From Klebsiella phage NU-KP11: a stretch of 64,000 nucleotides of DNA. A program made the translations under genes and the position numbers. The stretch is from the sequence record OR644643.1; one strand, written 5' to 3'. Each line of letters begins with the position of its first letter. Within the stretch, counting starts at the first letter, position 1. A model generated the notes under the pieces. It ran no database searches and was not told the DNA's origin. It saw only the letters and a list, made by a program, of their open reading frames with translations. Of this stretch, positions 5,167 to 53,977 are shown piece after piece.

Positions 5167-5645
5167 TTGGTTGCCTTCATTAATTGTCTTCTATAGCTCT
5201 TTGCTAAAGCCTTGCGATCCTCAGTTTCTGAGTACTCAAAGCCCATAGAAATCATTTCGGCTATCATATCCGATTTAGTAAGGCGTGTAAACCATTTAAC
5301 CTTATCGGGTATAAATTTGTCGTGCATACGGTTTTGTGAATAGTCGCGTTTGAGGTATGCTACCAGGCTTTCTAGCCATTCGATGTAATCAACATCACGG
5401 GAAACCAGTCCAGAACGATTAAATTTGTGCTTTACAATACCTTCTGTACCGTTGCATAGGTTACATAGGAGGCCGCGCACACGTCCGGCATTAGAGCCAG
5501 ATAGAGCATGATCATGGTCAAGGTGATGTTTTTCAAGGTCACCCTCTAAAGGGCGACCACATAACGCGCACAAGCCGTTTTGCTGTTCAAAAAGAGCTTG
5601 TTTAATGGATGGATAATCTTTCTTAGTAATACGTTTAGTGAGCAT
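5163..5645 (-). CDS. 49: Endonuclease VII (Holliday junction resolvase, gp49)
   Basis: CALCGRPL...HLDHDH...GRVRGLLCNLCNGTEG...KHKFNRSGL matches the T4 endo VII zinc-binding and catalytic core. The ORF-track start at 5660 is a TTG codon. The ATG at 5645 gives about 160 aa, close to T4's 157 aa. Confidence 0.9.
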   Translation of the reverse strand: MLTKRITKKDYPSIKQALFEQQNGLCALCGRPLEGDLEKHHLDHDHALSGSNAGRVRGLLCNLCNGTEGIVKHKFNRSGLVSRDVDYIEWLESLVAYLKRDYSQNRMHDKFIPDKVKWFTRLTKSDMIAEMISMGFEYSETEDRKALAKSYRRQLMKATK

Positions 5646-11977: not shown

Positions 11978-12502
11978 TTAACCTTTCATTTTCACACGTT
12001 TTTCGACTTGATAAAGTGCTTTACGCAGCAACTTCACTTTTACTTCATCCAGAATGACATCACCCTTAACGAATGCATCAAGCTGTGATTTTTCTGCATT
12101 AGCGGCATTGATAACCGCTATTGTATTTTCTTGTGTATATCCCAGACGTGGATTAATACGTTCCATTGTACGGGCATACGGGCTACCTGGTTTATTGCTA
12201 AACATCTTACCGGAATACTGACAACGTTCAGTTGTCATCAATACTTTCCAATCTTCCAGAGTAAGGTCAAAAGAATGGTTGTTCTTTGCGGCGTGTTCAT
12301 GCTTGAGATTATATGAACGCGCAATACGCAGATCCAATTCAATAGCAGACGCACGGCGGCGATGCTCAATGAGTTCGGGGCTAAGGGCCACAATCTCAGG
12401 TTCTTTTGCTTTACGAACCGCTTCTACATCAGGTGCGGCTTGGTTTGGTTTTACGTTTGAAGTAGCAATACTAGCCCAACGATCCATCGCAGATTTACGC
12501 AT
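11978..12502 (-). CDS. Putative degenerate NUMOD4/HNH_3-like endonuclease-domain protein
   Basis: EDWKVL..ERCQYSGKMFSNKPGSPYARTMERINPRLGYTQENTIAVINAANAEK loosely follows HNH_3 spacing. The assignment is weak. Confidence 0.35.
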   Translation of the reverse strand: MRKSAMDRWASIATSNVKPNQAAPDVEAVRKAKEPEIVALSPELIEHRRRASAIELDLRIARSYNLKHEHAAKNNHSFDLTLEDWKVLMTTERCQYSGKMFSNKPGSPYARTMERINPRLGYTQENTIAVINAANAEKSQLDAFVKGDVILDEVKVKLLRKALYQVEKRVKMKG

Positions 12503-12858
12503 TAGATAATCCCCGCATCTTGAAACGCCAGCGCCATAGAGGTGTTAAGATGTTCGCGTTTAAACGGGCGAGGTTTCTTTTCTTTCTTCATCGGACGTTT
12601 AGCACGTTCTAAATTGTACACACGCTTACGATGGATTTCGATCGCTTCGCGGCGCATTGCATTTTTAACAGGGAGATTTGCAGAACGGAACGCGCGGATA
12701 CGTTCAATTTCCTGTACTACCTGGTAAATATCGCCGTTATCTAACCCATGTTCACGGGCAATTTCGGCATAACCTTTACGCAAATCATTGAATTTGAAAT
12801 GAATTTGCACTTTTTCGGCTTGAGACAGTTCGGAAATGCTACGGTGTACAATTTTCAT
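12502..12858 (-). CDS. Hypothetical basic protein. The track start at 12891 is TTG. The ATG at 12858 has an AGGA RBS.
   Basis: ORF with an RBS TACCAAAGGAAAATAATATG upstream of the internal ATG. Confidence 0.45.
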   Translation of the reverse strand: MKIVHRSISELSQAEKVQIHFKFNDLRKGYAEIAREHGLDNGDIYQVVQEIERIRAFRSANLPVKNAMRREAIEIHRKRVYNLERAKRPMKKEKKPRPFKREHLNTSMALAFQDAGII

Positions 12859-12859
12859 A

Positions 12860-13186
12860 TTATTTTCCTTTGGTAGAATCGATTTTTGCAACTACATTCA
12901 ACACGCTATCGTTTCGGCTGTCAACATTTTTTAGAACAAAAGTTACTACCGTATACACTCCAGCGCTCATGTTGAAATTATCAACAAACGGGATCTGCTG
13001 ATCATCAAGAGTGTTGACCATTTCTTCCATGTCATTTGGGTGGTCAACGTTGATGAAAATACTTTCCGATACATGATTTTTGTATCGGGTTCCAATTCGT
13101 TCATCGAGTTTTTTACACATTACATCAACTAACATTTGTTTGTCAATGCCTAAAACACCAGAGTAGACCACATGATATAGTTTCAT
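12860..13186 (-). CDS. Hypothetical protein (108 aa)
   Basis: ATG verified. Its start overlaps the stop of the upstream small ORF (ATGA). Confidence 0.45.
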   Translation of the reverse strand: MKLYHVVYSGVLGIDKQMLVDVMCKKLDERIGTRYKNHVSESIFINVDHPNDMEEMVNTLDDQQIPFVDNFNMSAGVYTVVTFVLKNVDSRNDSVLNVVAKIDSTKGK

Positions 13187-13359
13187 ACAATATCCTCTTC
13201 CGATTCATTAACAATTGCAAAGGAAAGGAATGTAAAAGCAACCCCTAACCCAACCATCCAGATAGCCGTTAAATCACCATACATTGATGAATACGCGCCC
13301 ATCACTTCTAAGCGATATCCCAGCAAGAAAACGAGATACGCCAACACTTTATCATTCAT
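13183..13359 (-). CDS. Small hydrophobic (membrane) protein of about 58 aa. It is not in the ORF track because it is shorter than 60 aa.
   Basis: Reverse translation gives MNDKVLAYLVFLLGYRLEVMGAYSSMYGDLTAIWMVGLGVAFTFLSFAIVNESEEDIV. ATGA overlaps at both ends couple it to its neighbours. Confidence 0.4.
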   Translation of the reverse strand: MNDKVLAYLVFLLGYRLEVMGAYSSMYGDLTAIWMVGLGVAFTFLSFAIVNESEEDIV

Positions 13360-13673
13360 AATTCCTCACAAAACGCCCATGCTGCATGGTAAACGCTCGC
13401 GCCTTTGTCTTCGTTCATGCATACAACATCAACCGGACACACAACCCTGTACAGAACAGGATCCCCACCTATAGAACGCGCGGCCCTTCCAGCATATATA
13501 CGAGCTAACCCGATATCAGCGGTAAAGAAAACACGGTCTAAATTTTTCTTTCTGCCCTTTTCAGACAGAGTATCAGAATCACAGGGAGGCAATAACATGC
13601 TTTCAATACCAGCAGCAGTACACGAACCGTGATAATAAACAACGTTTTCATTTCTGCAATGTATCGTTTTCAT
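13356..13673 (-). CDS. Tpt1/KptA-like ART-fold (NAD+-binding lobe) mini-protein, 105 aa
   Basis: VVYYHGSCTAAGIESML aligns to the Tpt1 LYHGT..A.LEEGL segment. RVFFTADIGLARIYAGRAARSIGGDPVLYRV aligns to the Tpt1 HVHLSADLETA..VGKRHGKPVVL.V segment. There is a strong RBS (AAGGGAGGA). The protein lacks the N-terminal catalytic lobe. Confidence 0.45.
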   Translation of the reverse strand: MKTIHCRNENVVYYHGSCTAAGIESMLLPPCDSDTLSEKGRKKNLDRVFFTADIGLARIYAGRAARSIGGDPVLYRVVCPVDVVCMNEDKGASVYHAAWAFCEEL

Positions 13674-13705
13674 GTATCCTCCCTTAAAAAGATGCTTACA
13701 TTATA

Positions 13706-14581
13706 TCAAATGGATAAATCCATGCAAGAAATTTCTCGATCTACATCTTCTTTTGTCTTGTTGACATACGCCAGGTATTCATCGGTATACATTTTCCGCT
13801 TTCTGGCTATTCTTTCAGCAGTCGCACACATTTGAGCTTCTGACGGTTTATAAGGCAACCTTTCTCCAAATCCTTCAACAGTTAGACGAACGAAAGGAAC
13901 CGCAGAAGTTATAATGTCATTACCATACGCATAACCATTTTTAGTAAATACGGCTTTGTTGAATCGTTCATGGTGTACGCCTTCAACCTCAACCTGATCA
14001 CCATAGTAAGCAATAGTATCAATGCGATGGTTAAGAATGATAGCACCAGATTCAATGATTTTCAGTGCAGCGGCCTTTCCTTGTTCGCGAGCATAAGCCA
14101 CGATTTCATAAGAACCGATATCTATAGCGGAACCATGATTACCAACGATGTAAAACATGGAGTTAATTAGGTGCTTAGAGATATATGCATACGTTTTATA
14201 CATCTGATACTGTTCATTACGCAGACACATACCCGCTTTGTATTCACGTCGTAACTGCATAAGGTTTTGAATCACTTCATCAATACGCCATCCGTTAGGG
14301 AATTCTGCCTTTTTCTCACGTGCGATATGGATCAACGCGTTTCCATACATCGCGTTAAACGTCATGATCCGGATCCCTTCAACGTAACCATCGATAGGGG
14401 CTTGCCATGTAATAGGGCTATACTTCGGATCGTGGTCAGGACGCATTTTAGGGGTATGGTGGCGACGGAATCCAACATGAGCCGCAAAACGATCTTCAAT
14501 TTCACGGGAGTAATAGTTGTAAGAGTCCATGTCGCGGTCGCGGGAAAATTCTACAATGAAGCGATGTAAATTGATTTTCAT
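13706..14581 (-). CDS. Hypothetical protein (291 aa)
   Basis: Long ORF with a verified ATG. I could not assign any motif confidently. Confidence 0.55.
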   Translation of the reverse strand: MKINLHRFIVEFSRDRDMDSYNYYSREIEDRFAAHVGFRRHHTPKMRPDHDPKYSPITWQAPIDGYVEGIRIMTFNAMYGNALIHIAREKKAEFPNGWRIDEVIQNLMQLRREYKAGMCLRNEQYQMYKTYAYISKHLINSMFYIVGNHGSAIDIGSYEIVAYAREQGKAAALKIIESGAIILNHRIDTIAYYGDQVEVEGVHHERFNKAVFTKNGYAYGNDIITSAVPFVRLTVEGFGERLPYKPSEAQMCATAERIARKRKMYTDEYLAYVNKTKEDVDREISCMDLSI

Positions 14582-47548: not shown

Positions 47549-47582
47549 TATATTTCTCCAAATTTGCGGTTATGTATATCAC

Positions 47583-47590
47583 GTATTTAT
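47583..47590 (-). promoter_or_regulatory. Late promoter TATAAATA (gp7), immediately downstream of the gp6 terminator
   Basis: On the minus strand, a terminator hairpin is followed by TTTTTCTTTTTATAAATACG. The gp7 ATG lies about 35 nt downstream. Confidence 0.6.
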
Positions 47591-47600
47591 AAAAAGAAAA

Positions 47601-47625
47601 ACCCCTATCCGAAGACAGGGGTTAA
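47601..47625 (-). terminator. gp6 terminator hairpin
   Basis: The minus strand reads CCCCTGTCTTCGGATAGGGG followed by TTTTTCTTTTT. Confidence 0.6.
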
Positions 47626-47628
47626 CGA

Positions 47629-49554
47629 TTATTGACTGATAGGATTCATAGTCAATGTGGTATATTGAGGACGCAGGTCATTTTCAAACACGATCAACGA
47701 ACCATCGCGAGTAAAAATGGTTTCTTCGAGAGGTTTTGCGGTTAGCTCGATATAAGCAGCACTGAAACTATCGGCAGATACGTTCAGAACGCCCAGGTCA
47801 AAGCTAATGAAATCGGTGTAATGAGAAACCGATCCAACTTCGTAATATTTATTACGGGTTCCTGCATCTGTTAATTTTTCAAAGTCATCGCCTGTATAAG
47901 CAGCGATCGAAATGTCCCCATCCTTGAACGGGCCTATTACAATTTTTGCGTTACCATCCTGATCCATTTCCGTAGAAGCATAACGAACATCATAACTTTC
48001 GTCGTCTTCATTAGTGAATTTGAACGTACTGGAAATGATTGATTTCGATTCCACCTGGTTCAAGAAATGGATCCCAGACATAGGAGCACTGTAATAGTTG
48101 TCAATTTCACGGAGCAATTTAATATCTGCTTCCGAACCGATAATAGAAGTATCAGACTGATCGACATAAGTCAACATCTTAGATACACTGAACGATTTGT
48201 TGAAAATTTCAACGTTGTCAGTATAGTAAGAGTCGATCGACGAAATAACCTGACCGCGTAACCATTCCTCTGATTCCGTCAACTTACTGATATCATACGT
48301 TACTTTGACAGATTGCACGATATACAGATAGTTAGGATCCATAATCGACGGGGTGATCGTCGCGAGGTTATATTTCGAAAGATACGTTTGCATATCTTCT
48401 TTCTGTACCGATGTTAGGCGCAAACCTGACTTTGGTTTAACAGAAATGAAAGCATAACCAGGTTTTTCGTTATCAGTAAAGCACTGTACCGCCTGGATGA
48501 TAGAACCAAATCTGTGAGACAGGAATGATTCATAATCCGATGCAGTTACACAACGGCGTTGTGTTTCACGCATAACAGGGGCCAGTTCTCGAATACGCTC
48601 GATATCTTCCGGATCGCCACCACCATCAGCACCAACATAATCAGGGGATTTAGTCGGGTTTTCTTCGATGTTAGTGATGCTAATATTGGTTAATGTATCG
48701 ACATAGATAAAATCTTTTGCACCGTTAGCCGCTTCCCCATCGGTTGACAGGTACTCAATAACGATAGTCGAACCATTAGCAGGTTTCAAGCCCCCGATAT
48801 ATTCAGCGGTTAGTGCGCCACCAGCCACTTGTTGACTTGCTTCACCTTCACCGAAATAAACTTCGGTATGTCCATCAACAGTTTCACGCATGTAGTAAAT
48901 CGTGCTTGCGCCTGTTGCGTTTACAATGCTTTCGTTTGTCCAGTCTTCCCATTGTGCGCCGTTTACAGTTAAACGTACCTGACTACGGTCAATGTTTGGA
49001 TCTCGGATCAGGATACTCGAACCGTCATAAATTAGTTCAGTACGAACTAAACGGCCTTGCACCAGGTTCAGCATTGATGTATAGTTGTTATTACTATCAC
49101 GAACGATAACAACGTCATCTGATACAACAAAAGAATAACTGTCTGTATTCTTTACAGTACCGATGAATTTTGTACCGCGCGGGATACGGATCGATGTTGG
49201 GGTCAGTGGGTTAGCAGCCGTAATCATAACTGCTGTGCTTGCAGCCGTGCGCGAATCTGGCATATATCCCAGTTCTTGAGCAGACTGTACAACAGAACTA
49301 CGCAACGCAGCCGTGCGAATAAACGATTCAAATAGAGCCGTGTTACCCATCTGCTGAATATAAAGAGTAGCATACGACAGAAGGTCGATCAGTACGTTCA
49401 TTCGTGAGCCGGAAAAATCGTAATCCTTAAACTCTTCTTGTCCACCCAGCCAATCAATCAGATCCGATTTAATTTCTTCGAAAGTACCCCCGATAAAGAT
49501 ATCGGGGATTTGGTTAATCTGTTTTTTGACAGTCTTAGTCTTAGCAGTAGCCAT
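47629..49554 (-). CDS. 6: Baseplate wedge protein gp6
   Basis: 641 aa versus T4 gp6 at 660 aa. It is followed by a terminator hairpin and then the gp7 late promoter. Confidence 0.85.
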   Translation of the reverse strand: MATAKTKTVKKQINQIPDIFIGGTFEEIKSDLIDWLGGQEEFKDYDFSGSRMNVLIDLLSYATLYIQQMGNTALFESFIRTAALRSSVVQSAQELGYMPDSRTAASTAVMITAANPLTPTSIRIPRGTKFIGTVKNTDSYSFVVSDDVVIVRDSNNNYTSMLNLVQGRLVRTELIYDGSSILIRDPNIDRSQVRLTVNGAQWEDWTNESIVNATGASTIYYMRETVDGHTEVYFGEGEASQQVAGGALTAEYIGGLKPANGSTIVIEYLSTDGEAANGAKDFIYVDTLTNISITNIEENPTKSPDYVGADGGGDPEDIERIRELAPVMRETQRRCVTASDYESFLSHRFGSIIQAVQCFTDNEKPGYAFISVKPKSGLRLTSVQKEDMQTYLSKYNLATITPSIMDPNYLYIVQSVKVTYDISKLTESEEWLRGQVISSIDSYYTDNVEIFNKSFSVSKMLTYVDQSDTSIIGSEADIKLLREIDNYYSAPMSGIHFLNQVESKSIISSTFKFTNEDDESYDVRYASTEMDQDGNAKIVIGPFKDGDISIAAYTGDDFEKLTDAGTRNKYYEVGSVSHYTDFISFDLGVLNVSADSFSAAYIELTAKPLEETIFTRDGSLIVFENDLRPQYTTLTMNPISQ

Positions 49555-49585: not shown

Positions 49586-51652
49586 TTAGTATTTCAGTAC
49601 TGGAACACATACACTAATCGAACCAAAGTTGATTGCTAATCCTATGAGAGACAGCAATTTATTCACATATTGTGTGACTTTACTCAACGCCAACGTACAA
49701 ATTTGGTTATAGATTACTTTGCAGTGATCTTTAAACGATCGCGAACTATCAATGAAATTTTTGTACAGAGACTGAGCACCAGTAATCGCATTTTCATATG
49801 ACTTGAGAAGATCGTCAAATGCGACACCACAGAAGCCTAAAAACTCGTTTATTGTACTCATCAAAGGCAATTTCTTTAATTCTTCCATCGCCATGCTGTA
49901 TGTATCTTTCATTGCATCTTGTAGAGATCCAATCTGTTCCTGTATAGCGTCATACGCGGCCTGTGTTGCAGCTACAGCAGCGTTTGCCGCATCCAATGCA
50001 GATTGATAAGCCGCTGTTGCTTCGTCTGTTACAGCGCCCCACATCCAGTTTAAGTACTGGTTGAATTTTCTCTGAATTGCATCACGTTCGAAAATCTGAT
50101 TTTTTAACGTTTTGTAAAGTTCCTGCCCCTGTTCATAAAGCCCTCGGATCTGTTCGTATGACTCATCAACAAAAGCCTTGACTTTTTCCTGTGCTTGTTG
50201 ATACAAATCCATTGCAGTGAATCCAGGGAAGTTACCGCCCAGAATTATATCAAGTGGTTTGATTTGCATCATGATGTTACGGATAGCCAGCACCGCAGAC
50301 CATAACGGGTTTGGGACTTCCGGAGGGATAGCCCATGTTTGCATGATCCGACCGTATAAGTCGATTAATGCAACGCAACCGTTTTGGAACATCGTTAAAC
50401 ACCAATCAAATAACGCGCTACACGCATCCACAAGGTCGCGAGCGCCAGCTTTGACATATTCCACAGAGTAATTGTATGCGCTCCCTATGGCCCCGTATAT
50501 TGCGTTTATGACGGTTTCATATGTTTGTTGTCCGGATTTGATGATTGCATTAAATGCATCTTTCAAAGTCTGAACAGAATTATCACCAAACACCAGATCG
50601 TAAATGTTGATCGCAACACCTAAGATGGTTACTTGAGGCAAGAACTGATTAATCAATCCCCATGCACCACCGATAATGTTAAATGCAGCGCTAATCACTT
50701 GTCTGAAAACTTTCATAGCAGTTTGCCATGCTTGCTGTGACAATGCGAGCGCCCCCGCCATTACTTCTTCCATCGATACGGATAAACCATCAAACATCGT
50801 CGCGATCCCGAATCCATTCTGTACAGCACCCGTTAACATGTTAAACTGTAGCTTGAACGTATGACGGGTTTCATTCCATGCCTGTAACATAGCATCACTG
50901 ATATTTGTATATGCGAAACCAACAGTTGCCGGAATGCACGAAATATCAGCACGGCTTAATTCACTCGGTAATGCCCCATAAGTGGAAGGCATTGCAGGAG
51001 GAACAGGAGGAATGCTTGTATCTGCGTTGGTGTTAACCTGCATACCCGTATATTTGCACTGGTGCGCCCCTGTTTCATCATGCTTCATATAGGCTATACG
51101 ATTACCATTCCAATAATAATCAATATTGGTGAATGCGCCAGTGTCCTGATTATACGTCTGACGTATGCGAGCATCACATACAGGGGTTGTTCCGGAAAGA
51201 TACCCACCACTGTTTTCAACCTTATACATAGCCAGTTCGCCAGGGTTTTTGTATAGGTTTAATTTTGACAGATCCGCGCCATACCAATCATTACCACCAT
51301 TGATTTTAGTTGCACCAATAGATGTAATGTAAGCATCAATTTCTGCTTGAGTGTTGAAATAATAACCAATCTTTGGAACAAGGATCCCTGTTGGTTGTCC
51401 GGTATTTGGATCTGTTCCTGGTGAATTGACAACAGGTAGATCCGTGCTTCTATGTCCGAATGGTTCTTGAGTATAAAGATGAGTACCGATTTTGATTATC
51501 TCGGTATCCCACTCAACCCCAACAGCCGGATAATTTTCTGTATGCCCTTGCCAGATAACCCGCCGATAATAACCAGCGGGGATCTCAGCATCACAAGGAT
51601 GTTGATAATTTTGCATAATTCCATCAATTATTGATTCATAATCCATAATCAT
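49586..51652 (-). CDS. Large uncharacterised protein (688 aa) occupying the gp5.1-5.4 (PAAR) slot between gp5 and gp6
   Basis: ATG verified. It begins 4 nt after the gp5 stop, so it is translationally coupled. It has a Gly/Ala-rich central region, predicted long helices (AAYQSALDAANAAVAATQAAYDAIQEQIGSLQDAM), and a hydrophobic C-terminal tail. No PAAR motif and no other ORF of 60 aa or more are present in this interval. Confidence 0.6.
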   Translation of the reverse strand: MIMDYESIIDGIMQNYQHPCDAEIPAGYYRRVIWQGHTENYPAVGVEWDTEIIKIGTHLYTQEPFGHRSTDLPVVNSPGTDPNTGQPTGILVPKIGYYFNTQAEIDAYITSIGATKINGGNDWYGADLSKLNLYKNPGELAMYKVENSGGYLSGTTPVCDARIRQTYNQDTGAFTNIDYYWNGNRIAYMKHDETGAHQCKYTGMQVNTNADTSIPPVPPAMPSTYGALPSELSRADISCIPATVGFAYTNISDAMLQAWNETRHTFKLQFNMLTGAVQNGFGIATMFDGLSVSMEEVMAGALALSQQAWQTAMKVFRQVISAAFNIIGGAWGLINQFLPQVTILGVAINIYDLVFGDNSVQTLKDAFNAIIKSGQQTYETVINAIYGAIGSAYNYSVEYVKAGARDLVDACSALFDWCLTMFQNGCVALIDLYGRIMQTWAIPPEVPNPLWSAVLAIRNIMMQIKPLDIILGGNFPGFTAMDLYQQAQEKVKAFVDESYEQIRGLYEQGQELYKTLKNQIFERDAIQRKFNQYLNWMWGAVTDEATAAYQSALDAANAAVAATQAAYDAIQEQIGSLQDAMKDTYSMAMEELKKLPLMSTINEFLGFCGVAFDDLLKSYENAITGAQSLYKNFIDSSRSFKDHCKVIYNQICTLALSKVTQYVNKLLSLIGLAINFGSISVCVPVLKY

Positions 51653-51656
51653 TTAA

Positions 51657-53426
51657 TTACCCCACTTGGACGGTGCCGCCAGTGATTTTTGTTAATGCGC
51701 CAGAATCAATAAACGTGTTATTCGTTGCTTTGATATTGATATCTTTAGCACCGATATCCATCGTTTCTTCAATCTCAATTTTCGCATTTTTTGCAGTGAC
51801 CGTTGCGTCTTCTGTTACAGCCACGGTTGCATTCTGTTTCACATTTGCGGTAAGATTCTGATCAACGTTAACTGTTGCATCTTTGTTTACAGTTAGTTCA
51901 GCATTGCCTTTAATCAGGCCAACGTACTCACCTTCAACCGTTTGTTGAACGTTTCCACGAACAAATTCAGTTACGTTACCATCAACCGTTTGTTGAACGT
52001 TACCCATGTTGTAAATGAACGCATCACCTTCAATAACTACCTGCAAGTTGCCTTTAACGTTGAGTTTCCGGCCCTGCATCACAATCTGATAATCATCCCC
52101 TACGATTTTAACAACGCGGGTTCCATCCGGGCGAATTTCTTCGTAACTCCCTGCTGGGTGAACACGGTTATATCGTTCGTATCCTGGGGTATCATCGAAT
52201 TCCTGAATGTGTCCGGATCTCGATTCAAACACCATGTTATACGGATATTCCGCATTATAAGATGATGCTGGTTCTTCAAACATCACACGGGTATCACCAG
52301 GAGTAAACGGATCTTCCGGACTAGCAGCCAACAATGTAGCACCGTTATACGCAGCGTAAGCAGCACTCAGAGAGCGCCCTTCCGGATCTGGTACTTGCAC
52401 CCCATATGATTCAAGGTTGCCCGTGAGGACGATTTTAGACACGCGAGAAGAACGGCCTGGAGTTTGACTAGCCCACAGTGAATTTCGAAGACCATTATAA
52501 GCCGCTTGCCAATCTTCATTTTTCATCGCTTTTAGGGTATTGGTGAATTTAGCAACACCACCGACACCCATTTGAAACGACATGTTTTCGATCGCCATTT
52601 GACGAGGACGGTTGAGGTTCACATACACTTCACGGACGTTAGCGGTTCTCTGAATATCAGATCTTACTTTGGCTAAATCTTGAGCAAATAAGGTTGATAC
52701 CTCTTCTGCCGTGATTGTTCCGTTTGTTACTTCTCGACCTACCGCTTTACTGATCGCAGCGTTAATTTTTGCAGTGTCGCGAGTCTTTTCGCGGATAAGC
52801 AAATGCCCGATCCCGATTGTCGGATATCCTTCACTGTCTGTATACCATCGTGTGCGGATCCCCTCATCCTGCTTGAGCATCTTTTCGATCGTAAATCCAC
52901 CCGTATCAGGGCGGTTATCTTCTGGTATCTCATCCAGTGGGCGATCGTCTGGGTTTACTGCTATGCTTGTGTTTGAATCACGAATGATGACACTTGATGA
53001 TCCTTTGCCTTTCAAACCACCTAATGCAAGGGAGTTAACATCGTTACCAACATAGCGAGGGTATTCACCCATAGGATCGCAAAAACCTTTCTGTGTGTCT
53101 GGTTGTTCGACATATTCACCAGCGACAGTACCGATTATCATACCATCTTGGTGCCATTTGTCACGCCAATAACCAACAACAAAGGATCCGCGAGTGATAC
53201 CAGTTGGAGAGAAGCCCACACCAGAGATCGCAGCGCTTCTAATATCCTGAATAGGCATCATCCAGGGTAAATCTTCAACAGGAACACCGATCGCATCGGA
53301 TTTTTGTTTTTGGGCTGGGTGTTGTCCAAATACACGGACTTGAACACGGCCCAACCCGCGCGGATCATCAACGTTTTCAACCACCCCATCAAAGAAAGGT
53401 GAGTGTAAATTTCCGCCTAATTTCAT
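51657..53426 (-). CDS. 5: Baseplate hub / cell-puncturing device with tail lysozyme gp5
   Basis: The N-terminal FDGVVENVDDPRGLGRVQVRVFGQHP matches T4 gp5. The lysozyme domain reads DEGIRTRWYTDSEGYPTIGIGHLL...NRPRQMAIENMSFQMGVGGVAKF. The C-terminal beta-helix has VxGNxx repeats. Confidence 0.95.
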   Translation of the reverse strand: MKLGGNLHSPFFDGVVENVDDPRGLGRVQVRVFGQHPAQKQKSDAIGVPVEDLPWMMPIQDIRSAAISGVGFSPTGITRGSFVVGYWRDKWHQDGMIIGTVAGEYVEQPDTQKGFCDPMGEYPRYVGNDVNSLALGGLKGKGSSSVIIRDSNTSIAVNPDDRPLDEIPEDNRPDTGGFTIEKMLKQDEGIRTRWYTDSEGYPTIGIGHLLIREKTRDTAKINAAISKAVGREVTNGTITAEEVSTLFAQDLAKVRSDIQRTANVREVYVNLNRPRQMAIENMSFQMGVGGVAKFTNTLKAMKNEDWQAAYNGLRNSLWASQTPGRSSRVSKIVLTGNLESYGVQVPDPEGRSLSAAYAAYNGATLLAASPEDPFTPGDTRVMFEEPASSYNAEYPYNMVFESRSGHIQEFDDTPGYERYNRVHPAGSYEEIRPDGTRVVKIVGDDYQIVMQGRKLNVKGNLQVVIEGDAFIYNMGNVQQTVDGNVTEFVRGNVQQTVEGEYVGLIKGNAELTVNKDATVNVDQNLTANVKQNATVAVTEDATVTAKNAKIEIEETMDIGAKDINIKATNNTFIDSGALTKITGGTVQVG

Positions 53427-53977
53427 GAGTTAGCCTTTTCCATTTCTTTAATAAAATCATTCAGAAACGCCTGGATGTCAGACGGACTAATGATTTTTAT
53501 TGTTCGTTTTGCTTCATTCTGCAACACTGCATCTTCATAAATATCTACAGGAGCTAATACACCTTGATACTGTAAATACAGCATTGGTTTGTCACCTTTG
53601 TCATACCAATGACCAGGGTTATTGGGGTCTTCGACAAGGTTATAATACTTGTTGTTGTTTTCATCTACATGATACAGAACCTGTTCACCGCCAACCTCAG
53701 AATAACGCTGTATAGCGCACTGATACGCGGCTTCCTGATCGCTGATCCAACCATAGAAAGGGTCATAAACAGAGTTAAGCATCAACAGGATCCAGTAGTA
53801 TTGCTGGTTTCCATATAATGATTCTGCAAGTTGTTCAGGTCGTAGTGTGCCTGTTATCTGGTAACTACGGGTTTTATATTTTCCAATCACACGATTAAAA
53901 TAAAATCGATAGTCTCGGAAAATATCAGTTGTCTGGGTGCCTTTGTAATCAACAGGCGGGAAGTATGAAAATAGCAC
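53423..53977 (-). CDS. 53: Baseplate wedge protein gp53
   Basis: MLFSYFPPVDYKG...IFRDYRFYFNR...YQITGTLRPEQLAESLYGNQQYYWILLMLN..YDPFYGWISDQEAAYQ closely parallels T4 gp53. The start is GTG, preceded by an AGGGGAA RBS. Confidence 0.85.
   Translation of the reverse strand: MLFSYFPPVDYKGTQTTDIFRDYRFYFNRVIGKYKTRSYQITGTLRPEQLAESLYGNQQYYWILLMLNSVYDPFYGWISDQEAAYQCAIQRYSEVGGEQVLYHVDENNNKYYNLVEDPNNPGHWYDKGDKPMLYLQYQGVLAPVDIYEDAVLQNEAKRTIKIISPSDIQAFLNDFIKEMEKANS

Follow-up and report, generated by a model that had tools for sequence, protein, structure and literature searches.

What forms the tip of the cell-puncturing spike in a T4-like phage that has no recognisable gene for a PAAR protein? In the prevailing model of contractile injection, the needle owes its sharpness to a small PAAR cone that is stabilised by metal. 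The question is raised by a stretch of 64,000 nucleotides (nt) from Klebsiella phage NU-KP11 (sequence record OR644643.1), referred to here as the window, in which a single open reading frame (ORF) of 688 amino acids (aa) lies between the genes of the spike protein gp5 and the baseplate wedge protein gp6 (49586..51652, minus strand, ATG start). We consider this ORF a putative spike-tip gene: its product is probably a structural protein of the virion, one copy of which is docked on the gp5 trimer as an enlarged spike tip in place of PAAR. This reading has already been published, unproven, for this very protein family, including a member from the same genus. What is added here is the evidence that the gene and the end of gp5 form a cassette, a monomer model of higher confidence, searches for related folds and homologues that came out negative, and the size and limits of the family.

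The interval between genes 5 and 6

In T4, the interval holds 5.1, segC, 5.3 and the 97-aa gp5.4, annotated as a PAAR protein; an earlier note, made from the letters of the window alone, names small genes there with gp5.4 among them. The slot immediately 5' of gp6 is taken by gp5.4 in T4, Aes012, Meroveus and Asswx_1. The minus strand of the window reads gp53, gp5, the 688-aa ORF, gp6, gp7 and gp8. Here, gp5 (51657..53426, minus strand; Pfam Gp5_OB 1e-58, Phage_lysozyme and Gp5_C; phrog_430) and gp6 (47629..49554, minus strand; five Gp6 Pfam domains) enclose the ORF, which occupies the whole interval and starts exactly 4 nt past the gp5 stop. At the junction (51653..51665, minus strand) the last gp5 codons, GTGGGG, are followed by a TAA stop, a TTAA spacer and the ATG; the G-rich, Shine-Dalgarno-like GTGGGG thus lies 7 nt upstream of the start, inside the end of gp5. 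The ORF, the Pfam and PHROG assignments of its neighbours and the junction sequence all agree with the arrangement given in the earlier note. Judged from this junction, gp5 and the tip gene are translationally coupled. In 12 other loci from IMG/VR the distance from gp5 stop to tip-gene start is -4 to +4 nt, and the same range goes with the order gp5-tip gene-gp6 in KP15, RB43, SP18, PM2 and two divergent metagenomic members, an order that the 12 loci share. On the far side, gp6 starts 31 nt beyond the tip-gene stop with a ribosome-binding site of its own (AAGAGGAA).

The T4-type late promoter consensus (TATAAATA) is not found directly upstream of the ORF, and it would therefore be expressed within a gp53-gp5-ORF-gp6 unit. 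The nearest such promoter precedes gp7, at 47584-47591 in the gp6-gp7 intergenic region (47549-47628, minus strand). A terminator is predicted directly after gp6 in the KP15 record; together, promoter and terminator suggest that gp53-gp5-tip gene-gp6 may be a transcription unit separate from that of gp7 onward.

Could a PAAR gene lie somewhere else? T4 gp5.1, gp5.3 and gp5.4 gave no match to the window by tblastn, and gp5.4 against the window together with KP15 segments tiling the whole genome gave a best E of 2.6. A hidden Markov model (HMM) of gp5.4 was built from seven phage proteins (T4, the two Aeromonas phages Aes012 and Asswx_1, Acinetobacter Meroveus, a Vibrio Ackermannviridae phage, Campylobacter CPX and Erwinia SNUABM_30). 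Against the complete set of six-frame segments of a Slopekvirus genome it reached only E=0.61, off-frame, with a T4 control at 3e-45, and it did not match the tip ORF itself. The PAAR family PF05488 had no match to the tip protein at E<=0.1, nor is PAAR among the 25 families listed for 55 family members at E<=0.01. Within +/-10 kb of the 12 further IMG/VR loci no PAAR was found (best E 1.7). The earlier claim that no PAAR-like ORF lies nearby now extends to a whole Slopekvirus genome. Two findings that had been named beforehand as speaking against a tip role, a PAAR gene elsewhere in the genome and homology to a non-structural T4 5.x protein, did not turn up in these searches. In many T4-like records gp5.4 itself is mis-annotated as 'phospholipase' or 'PAAR motif of membran proteins', and these labels have been propagated.

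The window belongs to Slopekvirus (KP15-like) and is kin of Klebsiella phages KP15 and KP27, whose orthologs are 99% identical to the tip protein; the KP15 ortholog, KP15_158, is annotated as a 'hypothetical protein'. Identity to RB43 orf205w is 78.9% over the full length, and phrog_5296, whose function is listed as unknown in PHROG, matches at E=0 over aa 3-688 (profile of 685 positions). Full-length homologs occur in 211 phage records which, together with a PHROG of its own, mark the ORF as a real gene. These come from Slopekvirus, from the RB43-like Pseudotevenvirus and Cronobacter, Enterobacter and Citrobacter relatives at about 80% identity, and, with 41-54% identity, from Gaprivervirus (SP18), Bragavirus (PM2) and phages of Morganella and Citrobacter. 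The family as a whole spans 33-99% identity at a constant length of about 670-760 aa. Every criterion of sequence and context places the protein in the RB43 orf205w / phrog_5296 family, whose Helios member is gp203. The family is narrow: when 1.84 billion cluster representatives were searched exhaustively with HMMER, only 8 clusters of full length turned up, besides fragments.

Its labels are another matter. Orthologs are inconsistently called 'tail length tape measure protein' or 'baseplate hub structural protein' (PP889462.1, PP889464.1, PQ657798.1, MT341500.1). Is the protein then a tape measure? The annotations in PP889462 and PQ657798 say so, PHROG tape-measure families match aa ~250-670 at 1.5e-8 to 3e-3, and HMMER finds real tape measures at 2e-7 to 1e-4. 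These matches cover Ala/Gln/Glu-rich helices, and they are probably compositional, since a chromosomal apolipoprotein-like protein gives equally good ones. That helical protein (P0075), the best candidate for a partial relative, lies in a non-phage context and was rejected. The canonical gp27-28-29-48-54 cluster of KP15 includes a T4-type gp29 (KP15_88, 593 aa), and an hhalign comparison of the family with gp29 gave a probability of 0.1%. The Pfam search assigned no family to the tip protein, its matches across the family being to scattered coiled-coil families in at most 9/55 members. The gene stands between spike and wedge genes and not in the tube and tape-measure module, and its product has a globular N-terminal domain and the constant length noted above. 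We regard tape-measure identity as effectively refuted and give it almost no chance of being right; the resemblance to tape measures seen in the earlier note is probably one of composition.

The end of gp5 and the tip gene

Which part of gp5 goes with the tip gene? An answer is given by SP18, which like T4 belongs to the Tevenvirinae. The OB, lysozyme and proximal beta-helix regions of SP18 gp5 are 65-68% identical to T4 and only 41-54% to the window phage. In a sliding comparison, identity to T4 is 52-82% up to about residue 510 and then falls to 16-26%, while identity to PM2 rises past the same point to 38-63%; the crossover lies at about residues 513-533. Beyond it, SP18 gp5 is 35-63% identical to PM2, RB43 and the window phage. 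The flanks are still T4-like, with identities of 68% for gp53 and 69% for gp6 (gp6 from residue 1).

The C-terminal part of gp5 past this point, aa ~515-589 in the window (51660..51884, minus strand) and ending ...DSGALTKITGGTVQVG, co-varies and co-transfers with the tip gene. Between SP18 and PM2 the gp5 tip region is 50.7% identical and the tip protein 58.7%; between the window and RB43 the corresponding values are 74.7% and 78.9%, and the trees of the two agree. All carriers examined, down to the most divergent members at 33-38% identity, have a gp5 that ends in ...G[GA]xV[QS]VG, with [ST]K[IV][TS] ahead of it in most; the window gp5 has a module of this carrier type (...TKITGGTVQVG). From the SP18 crossover, the matching identities and the common gp5 end it follows that the tip gene and the final ~75 residues of gp5 behave as one exchangeable cassette. 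To our knowledge, this is absent from both papers on the family. Such co-inheritance would be expected if two surfaces bind each other and have become adapted together.

Mobile endonucleases are also found in the interval: the GIY-YIG gene segC in T4 (5197-5619 of our T4 locus) and a 225-aa HNH-type ORF between the tip gene and gp6 in the RB43-like IMGVR_UViG_648936715_000001 (about 12070-12780 of the extracted locus). It is plausible that they could drive exchange of the cassette.

Two published studies have dealt with the family. RB43, RB16 and Lw1 are without gene 5.4, and the 5.1-5.4 locus is filled in these phages by orf205w, of ~690 aa, with residues 1-220 alpha/beta and the remainder helical (Mattenberger, Leiman, Belin et al., bioRxiv 2025, updated 2026; PMC12407873). 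In the same work, a cryo-electron microscopy (cryo-EM) reconstruction of the RB43 baseplate at 17.7 Å showed a spike-tip protein larger than that of T4, and a low-confidence AlphaFold model of orf205w fits the enlarged density (PMC12407873). Gp203 of Helios, also a Slopekvirus, is the same protein, and it has been modelled together with the gp5 trimer by AlphaFold 3 (AF3) (Viruses 2026, PMC13611949). This model has a hydrophobic contact with the gp5 tip resembling that of gp5/gp5.4, an intramolecular 'triple coiled coil' (Phe287-Ile327, Glu398-Trp440, Lys631-Ile670) and a distal loop, and gp203 was proposed as an analogue of gp5.1 plus gp5.4 (PMC13611949). The idea of a spike-tip protein, offered as new in the earlier note, is therefore not new.

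Architecture and proposed docking of the tip protein

An AlphaFold 2 (AF2) monomer was computed from an alignment of 55 family members, over which the conservation counts were also taken. The model is confident, with a mean predicted local distance difference test (pLDDT) of 87.8, a predicted template modelling score (pTM) of 0.78 and no disordered segment, and it gives the 76-kDa protein an elongated helical architecture. The N-terminal alpha/beta domain (aa 1 to about 270; 50843..51652, minus strand) is globular and without known fold; invariant in it are C20, C199, a W123-x-G-A-D127 motif and E139/E146/N147. The helical region (aa 293-669; 49646..50776, minus strand) is built on three core helices of 34-38 residues, H293-327, H403-440 and H636-669, and contains a hydrophobic beta-hairpin, put at aa 337-356 or, more narrowly, at 341-348. 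A long helical hairpin of ~80 Å (aa 480-580, with H480-534 and H543-580 by AF2 secondary structure; 49913..50215, minus strand) carries at its apex the conserved motif Q532-Y-L-x-[G/W]-M-[W/Y]-E539 (50036-50059, minus strand), with Q532 in 52/55 members, Y533 in 54/55, M537 in 51/55 and W/Y538 in 37/55. The protein ends in a hydrophobic beta-strand (aa 679-687; 49592..49618, minus strand) with C682 in 52/55 and P684 in 53/55. Conservation is highest at aa 121-150, 391-480 and 631-688, and lowest in the hairpin helices (481-570), despite the conserved apex.

Five cysteines are conserved in the N-terminal domain and the C-terminal end: C20 and C199 in 55/55, C239 and C682 in 52/55 and C644 in 47/55. 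In a virion protein assembled in the cytoplasm such conservation hints at a metal site, and the five may form one like the Zn of PAAR or the Fe of P2 gpV tips. Residues H18 and H191 group with these cysteines as possible metal-site residues.

The composition is in part as the earlier note had it. The tail is hydrophobic, with a Kyte-Doolittle value of 1.9 over aa 663-688; the Gly/Ala-rich centre comes down to a mild enrichment (A+G 20.9% in aa 271-480 vs 17.6% overall; Ala 15.8% in aa 481-600) and not a marked richness. The fold search recommended there gave little: no relative of solved structure was found by sequence (best E 0.017, coiled-coil noise), Foldseek returned no significant match, and the fold matches seen are generic long-helix bundles at 4-12% identity with a designed filament at the top.

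How would such a protein be placed on the spike? It would be made from a late transcript common to gp53, gp5 and gp6, with its translation coupled to that of gp5. A single copy would then dock where the beta-helix trimer of gp5 ends in a blunt C-terminal platform, and the parts lying against the carrier-specific last ~75 residues of gp5 would be the protein's conserved hydrophobic core and its C-terminal portion (the three ~35-residue helices and the C-terminal strand). The docked protein would form the distal end of the cell-puncturing device, replacing gp5.4 and possibly also gp5.1 of T4. The ~80 Å hairpin would point away from the phage, with its conserved aromatic and hydrophobic apex (QYLxWMW) the first to meet the outer membrane. 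Single-copy capping of the beta-helix is suggested by the published AF3 model and low-resolution EM, to which the co-transfer adds indirect evidence. Among the proposals of the earlier note, that of an alternative tip cap in place of PAAR is the best supported, by the absence of PAAR, the co-transfer with gp5, the coupling and the published work on RB43 and Helios; what it loses is its novelty.

The protein might also be membrane-active, which would extend the tip reading and not oppose it. Riding the spike into the periplasm, it would refold, and its hydrophobic elements (the beta-hairpin at aa 337-356, the C-terminal aa 663-688 and the hairpin apex) would be inserted into either the outer membrane or the inner one. 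There it would anchor the tube or help to form a conduit for DNA, on the model of ClyA-type alpha-pore-forming toxins or of ejected tape-measure and ejection proteins. The hydrophobic elements and a weak fold resemblance to pore-forming toxins are compatible with this in a generic way. However, the hydrophobic segments are modelled at high pLDDT as buried core, the fold matches are the generic bundles just described, and the tape-measure matches are compositionally suspect given the equal score of the chromosomal apolipoprotein-like protein. A device of this kind therefore seems unlikely to us, and we hold similarly small the chance that an active tip inserts into the host membrane, or engages a periplasmic or inner-membrane partner, and so takes over part of a channel-forming or anchoring role. 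The variant of the earlier note in which the protein is ejected cargo or a pore-former has only generic helical-bundle similarity behind it.

Several points weigh against the spike-tip reading itself. A largely helical body of 76 kDa is a counter-intuitive shape for a point that pierces membranes, and a sequence comparison of the three core helix segments with one another detected no internal pseudo-threefold repeat (z at most 2.04). The identity of the RB43 density with this protein, the 1:3 stoichiometry, the orientation, the interface and any interaction with the membrane or lipopolysaccharide (LPS) are all things that we infer. The absence of PAAR was computed genome-wide for one Slopekvirus genome, locally for SP18 and PM2, and is taken for RB43 as reported (PMC12407873). 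The authors of that work call the RB43 tip only 'possibly encoded by' orf205w, and co-expression of orf205w with gp5-beta failed (PMC12407873). A literature search, from which subscription journals were absent, found no mass-spectrometric, genetic or high-resolution structural evidence that places any family member in the virion; the liquid chromatography-mass spectrometry paper that it did find concerns Jiaodavirus phages, which carry gp5.4, and the mass spectrometry in the updated preprint is of the P2 capsid (PMC12407873).

Could the protein, then, be no part of the virion at all? It might be a chaperone for assembly of the gp5 beta-helix or hub, or an infection-stage protein in a permissive slot, with the RB43 density being something else. 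The lack of any reported proteomic detection and the failed recombinant complex fit such a role, and T4 gp5.4 is dispensable for assembly, so that loss of PAAR need not by itself require a replacement. On the other hand, the co-inheritance with the C-terminal module of gp5 argues for an enduring physical association with the gp5 end, and it is exactly there that the extra RB43 density is seen (PMC12407873). The gene moreover belongs to a late structural operon, is conserved at constant length over 33-99% identity, and shares its interval with no other candidate. We therefore think a non-virion factor quite improbable and retain the docked spike tip as the preferred explanation.

Neighbouring genes, significance and known systems

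Upstream of gp5 lies the baseplate wedge gene gp53 (53423..53977, minus strand, GTG start; Pfam Phage_gp53 4.5e-64 over aa 1-177). From its GTG start the product has 184 aa. The RefSeq version in KP15 (KP15_156, NC_014036.1 104577-104936; 360 nt, 119 aa) appears to be N-terminally truncated; the KP15 DNA encodes all 184 aa at 100% identity, and Phage_gp53 covers residues 1-177.

Two relatives differ downstream of the tip gene. In IMGVR_UViG_3300045988_066415 (12056-14500 of the extracted locus), a relative of 47% identity, small opposite-strand ORFs and not gp6 follow the tip gene, which breaks an adjacency that is otherwise universal. In the most divergent member (P0062; 764 aa, 33-35% identity), which comes from a metagenomic contig, the tip gene is separated from gp6 by a gp25-like gene (PF04965, 141 aa; 2542-2967 of its locus), whereas gp25 of KP15 and T4 lies in the distant hub cluster.

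Where the prevailing model has a small PAAR cone, a subset of T4-like phages, with hosts in Klebsiella, Enterobacter, Escherichia, Cronobacter, Citrobacter and Proteus, carry instead a 76-kDa protein with no recognised fold, and the family is a source of a new protein fold. Many of the carriers are used in phage therapy. T4 gp5.4 governs fitness and the ability to infect hosts whose LPS is truncated (PMC12407873), and for this reason a large tip may influence host range and resistance. The co-transfer of the cassette suggests that it can be swapped between phages, which would be useful for engineering. If the reading as an active tip were true, the gp5 tail and the tip gene would together be an exchangeable 'penetration module' adapting T4-like phages to different envelopes. 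For specialists, the interest lies in proof by experiment, a high-resolution structure and the advantage of a bulky helical tip.

How does the protein compare with known systems? No convincing homology links it to tape measure proteins or to ClyA-family toxins (AhlC, YaxB, Hbl-B), its matches to them looking compositional or generic; its gene context differs from theirs, and phages of the window's type have a gp29 of their own. T4 gp5.4 (PDB 4KU0; PF05488) has the same slot between gp5 and gp6, presumably the same partner in the blunt platform of gp5, and presumably the same single copy per trimer. However, gp5.4 is an all-beta PAAR cone of 97 aa, whereas the window protein has 688 aa in a novel alpha/beta domain and a helical bundle; it shows no likeness to gp5.4 or PAAR in sequence, profile or fold, and the small all-beta conical fold is not seen in it. 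A second myophage spike, that of P1, likewise ends in an alpha-helical extension with a distal loop, the UpfB tripod on the PAAR protein UpfC (PDB 9VZK, as described in PMC13611949). Compared by description, P1 keeps its PAAR protein and supplements it with a separate helical protein in three copies, while for the window a single polypeptide is proposed to sit directly on gp5 with no PAAR between them. The closest systems are RB43 orf205w and Helios gp203, the latter from the window's own genus. They share with the window protein the family, the locus, the absence of gp5.4 and the predicted layout (1-220 alpha/beta, the rest helical); it is their ortholog, with no difference in kind.

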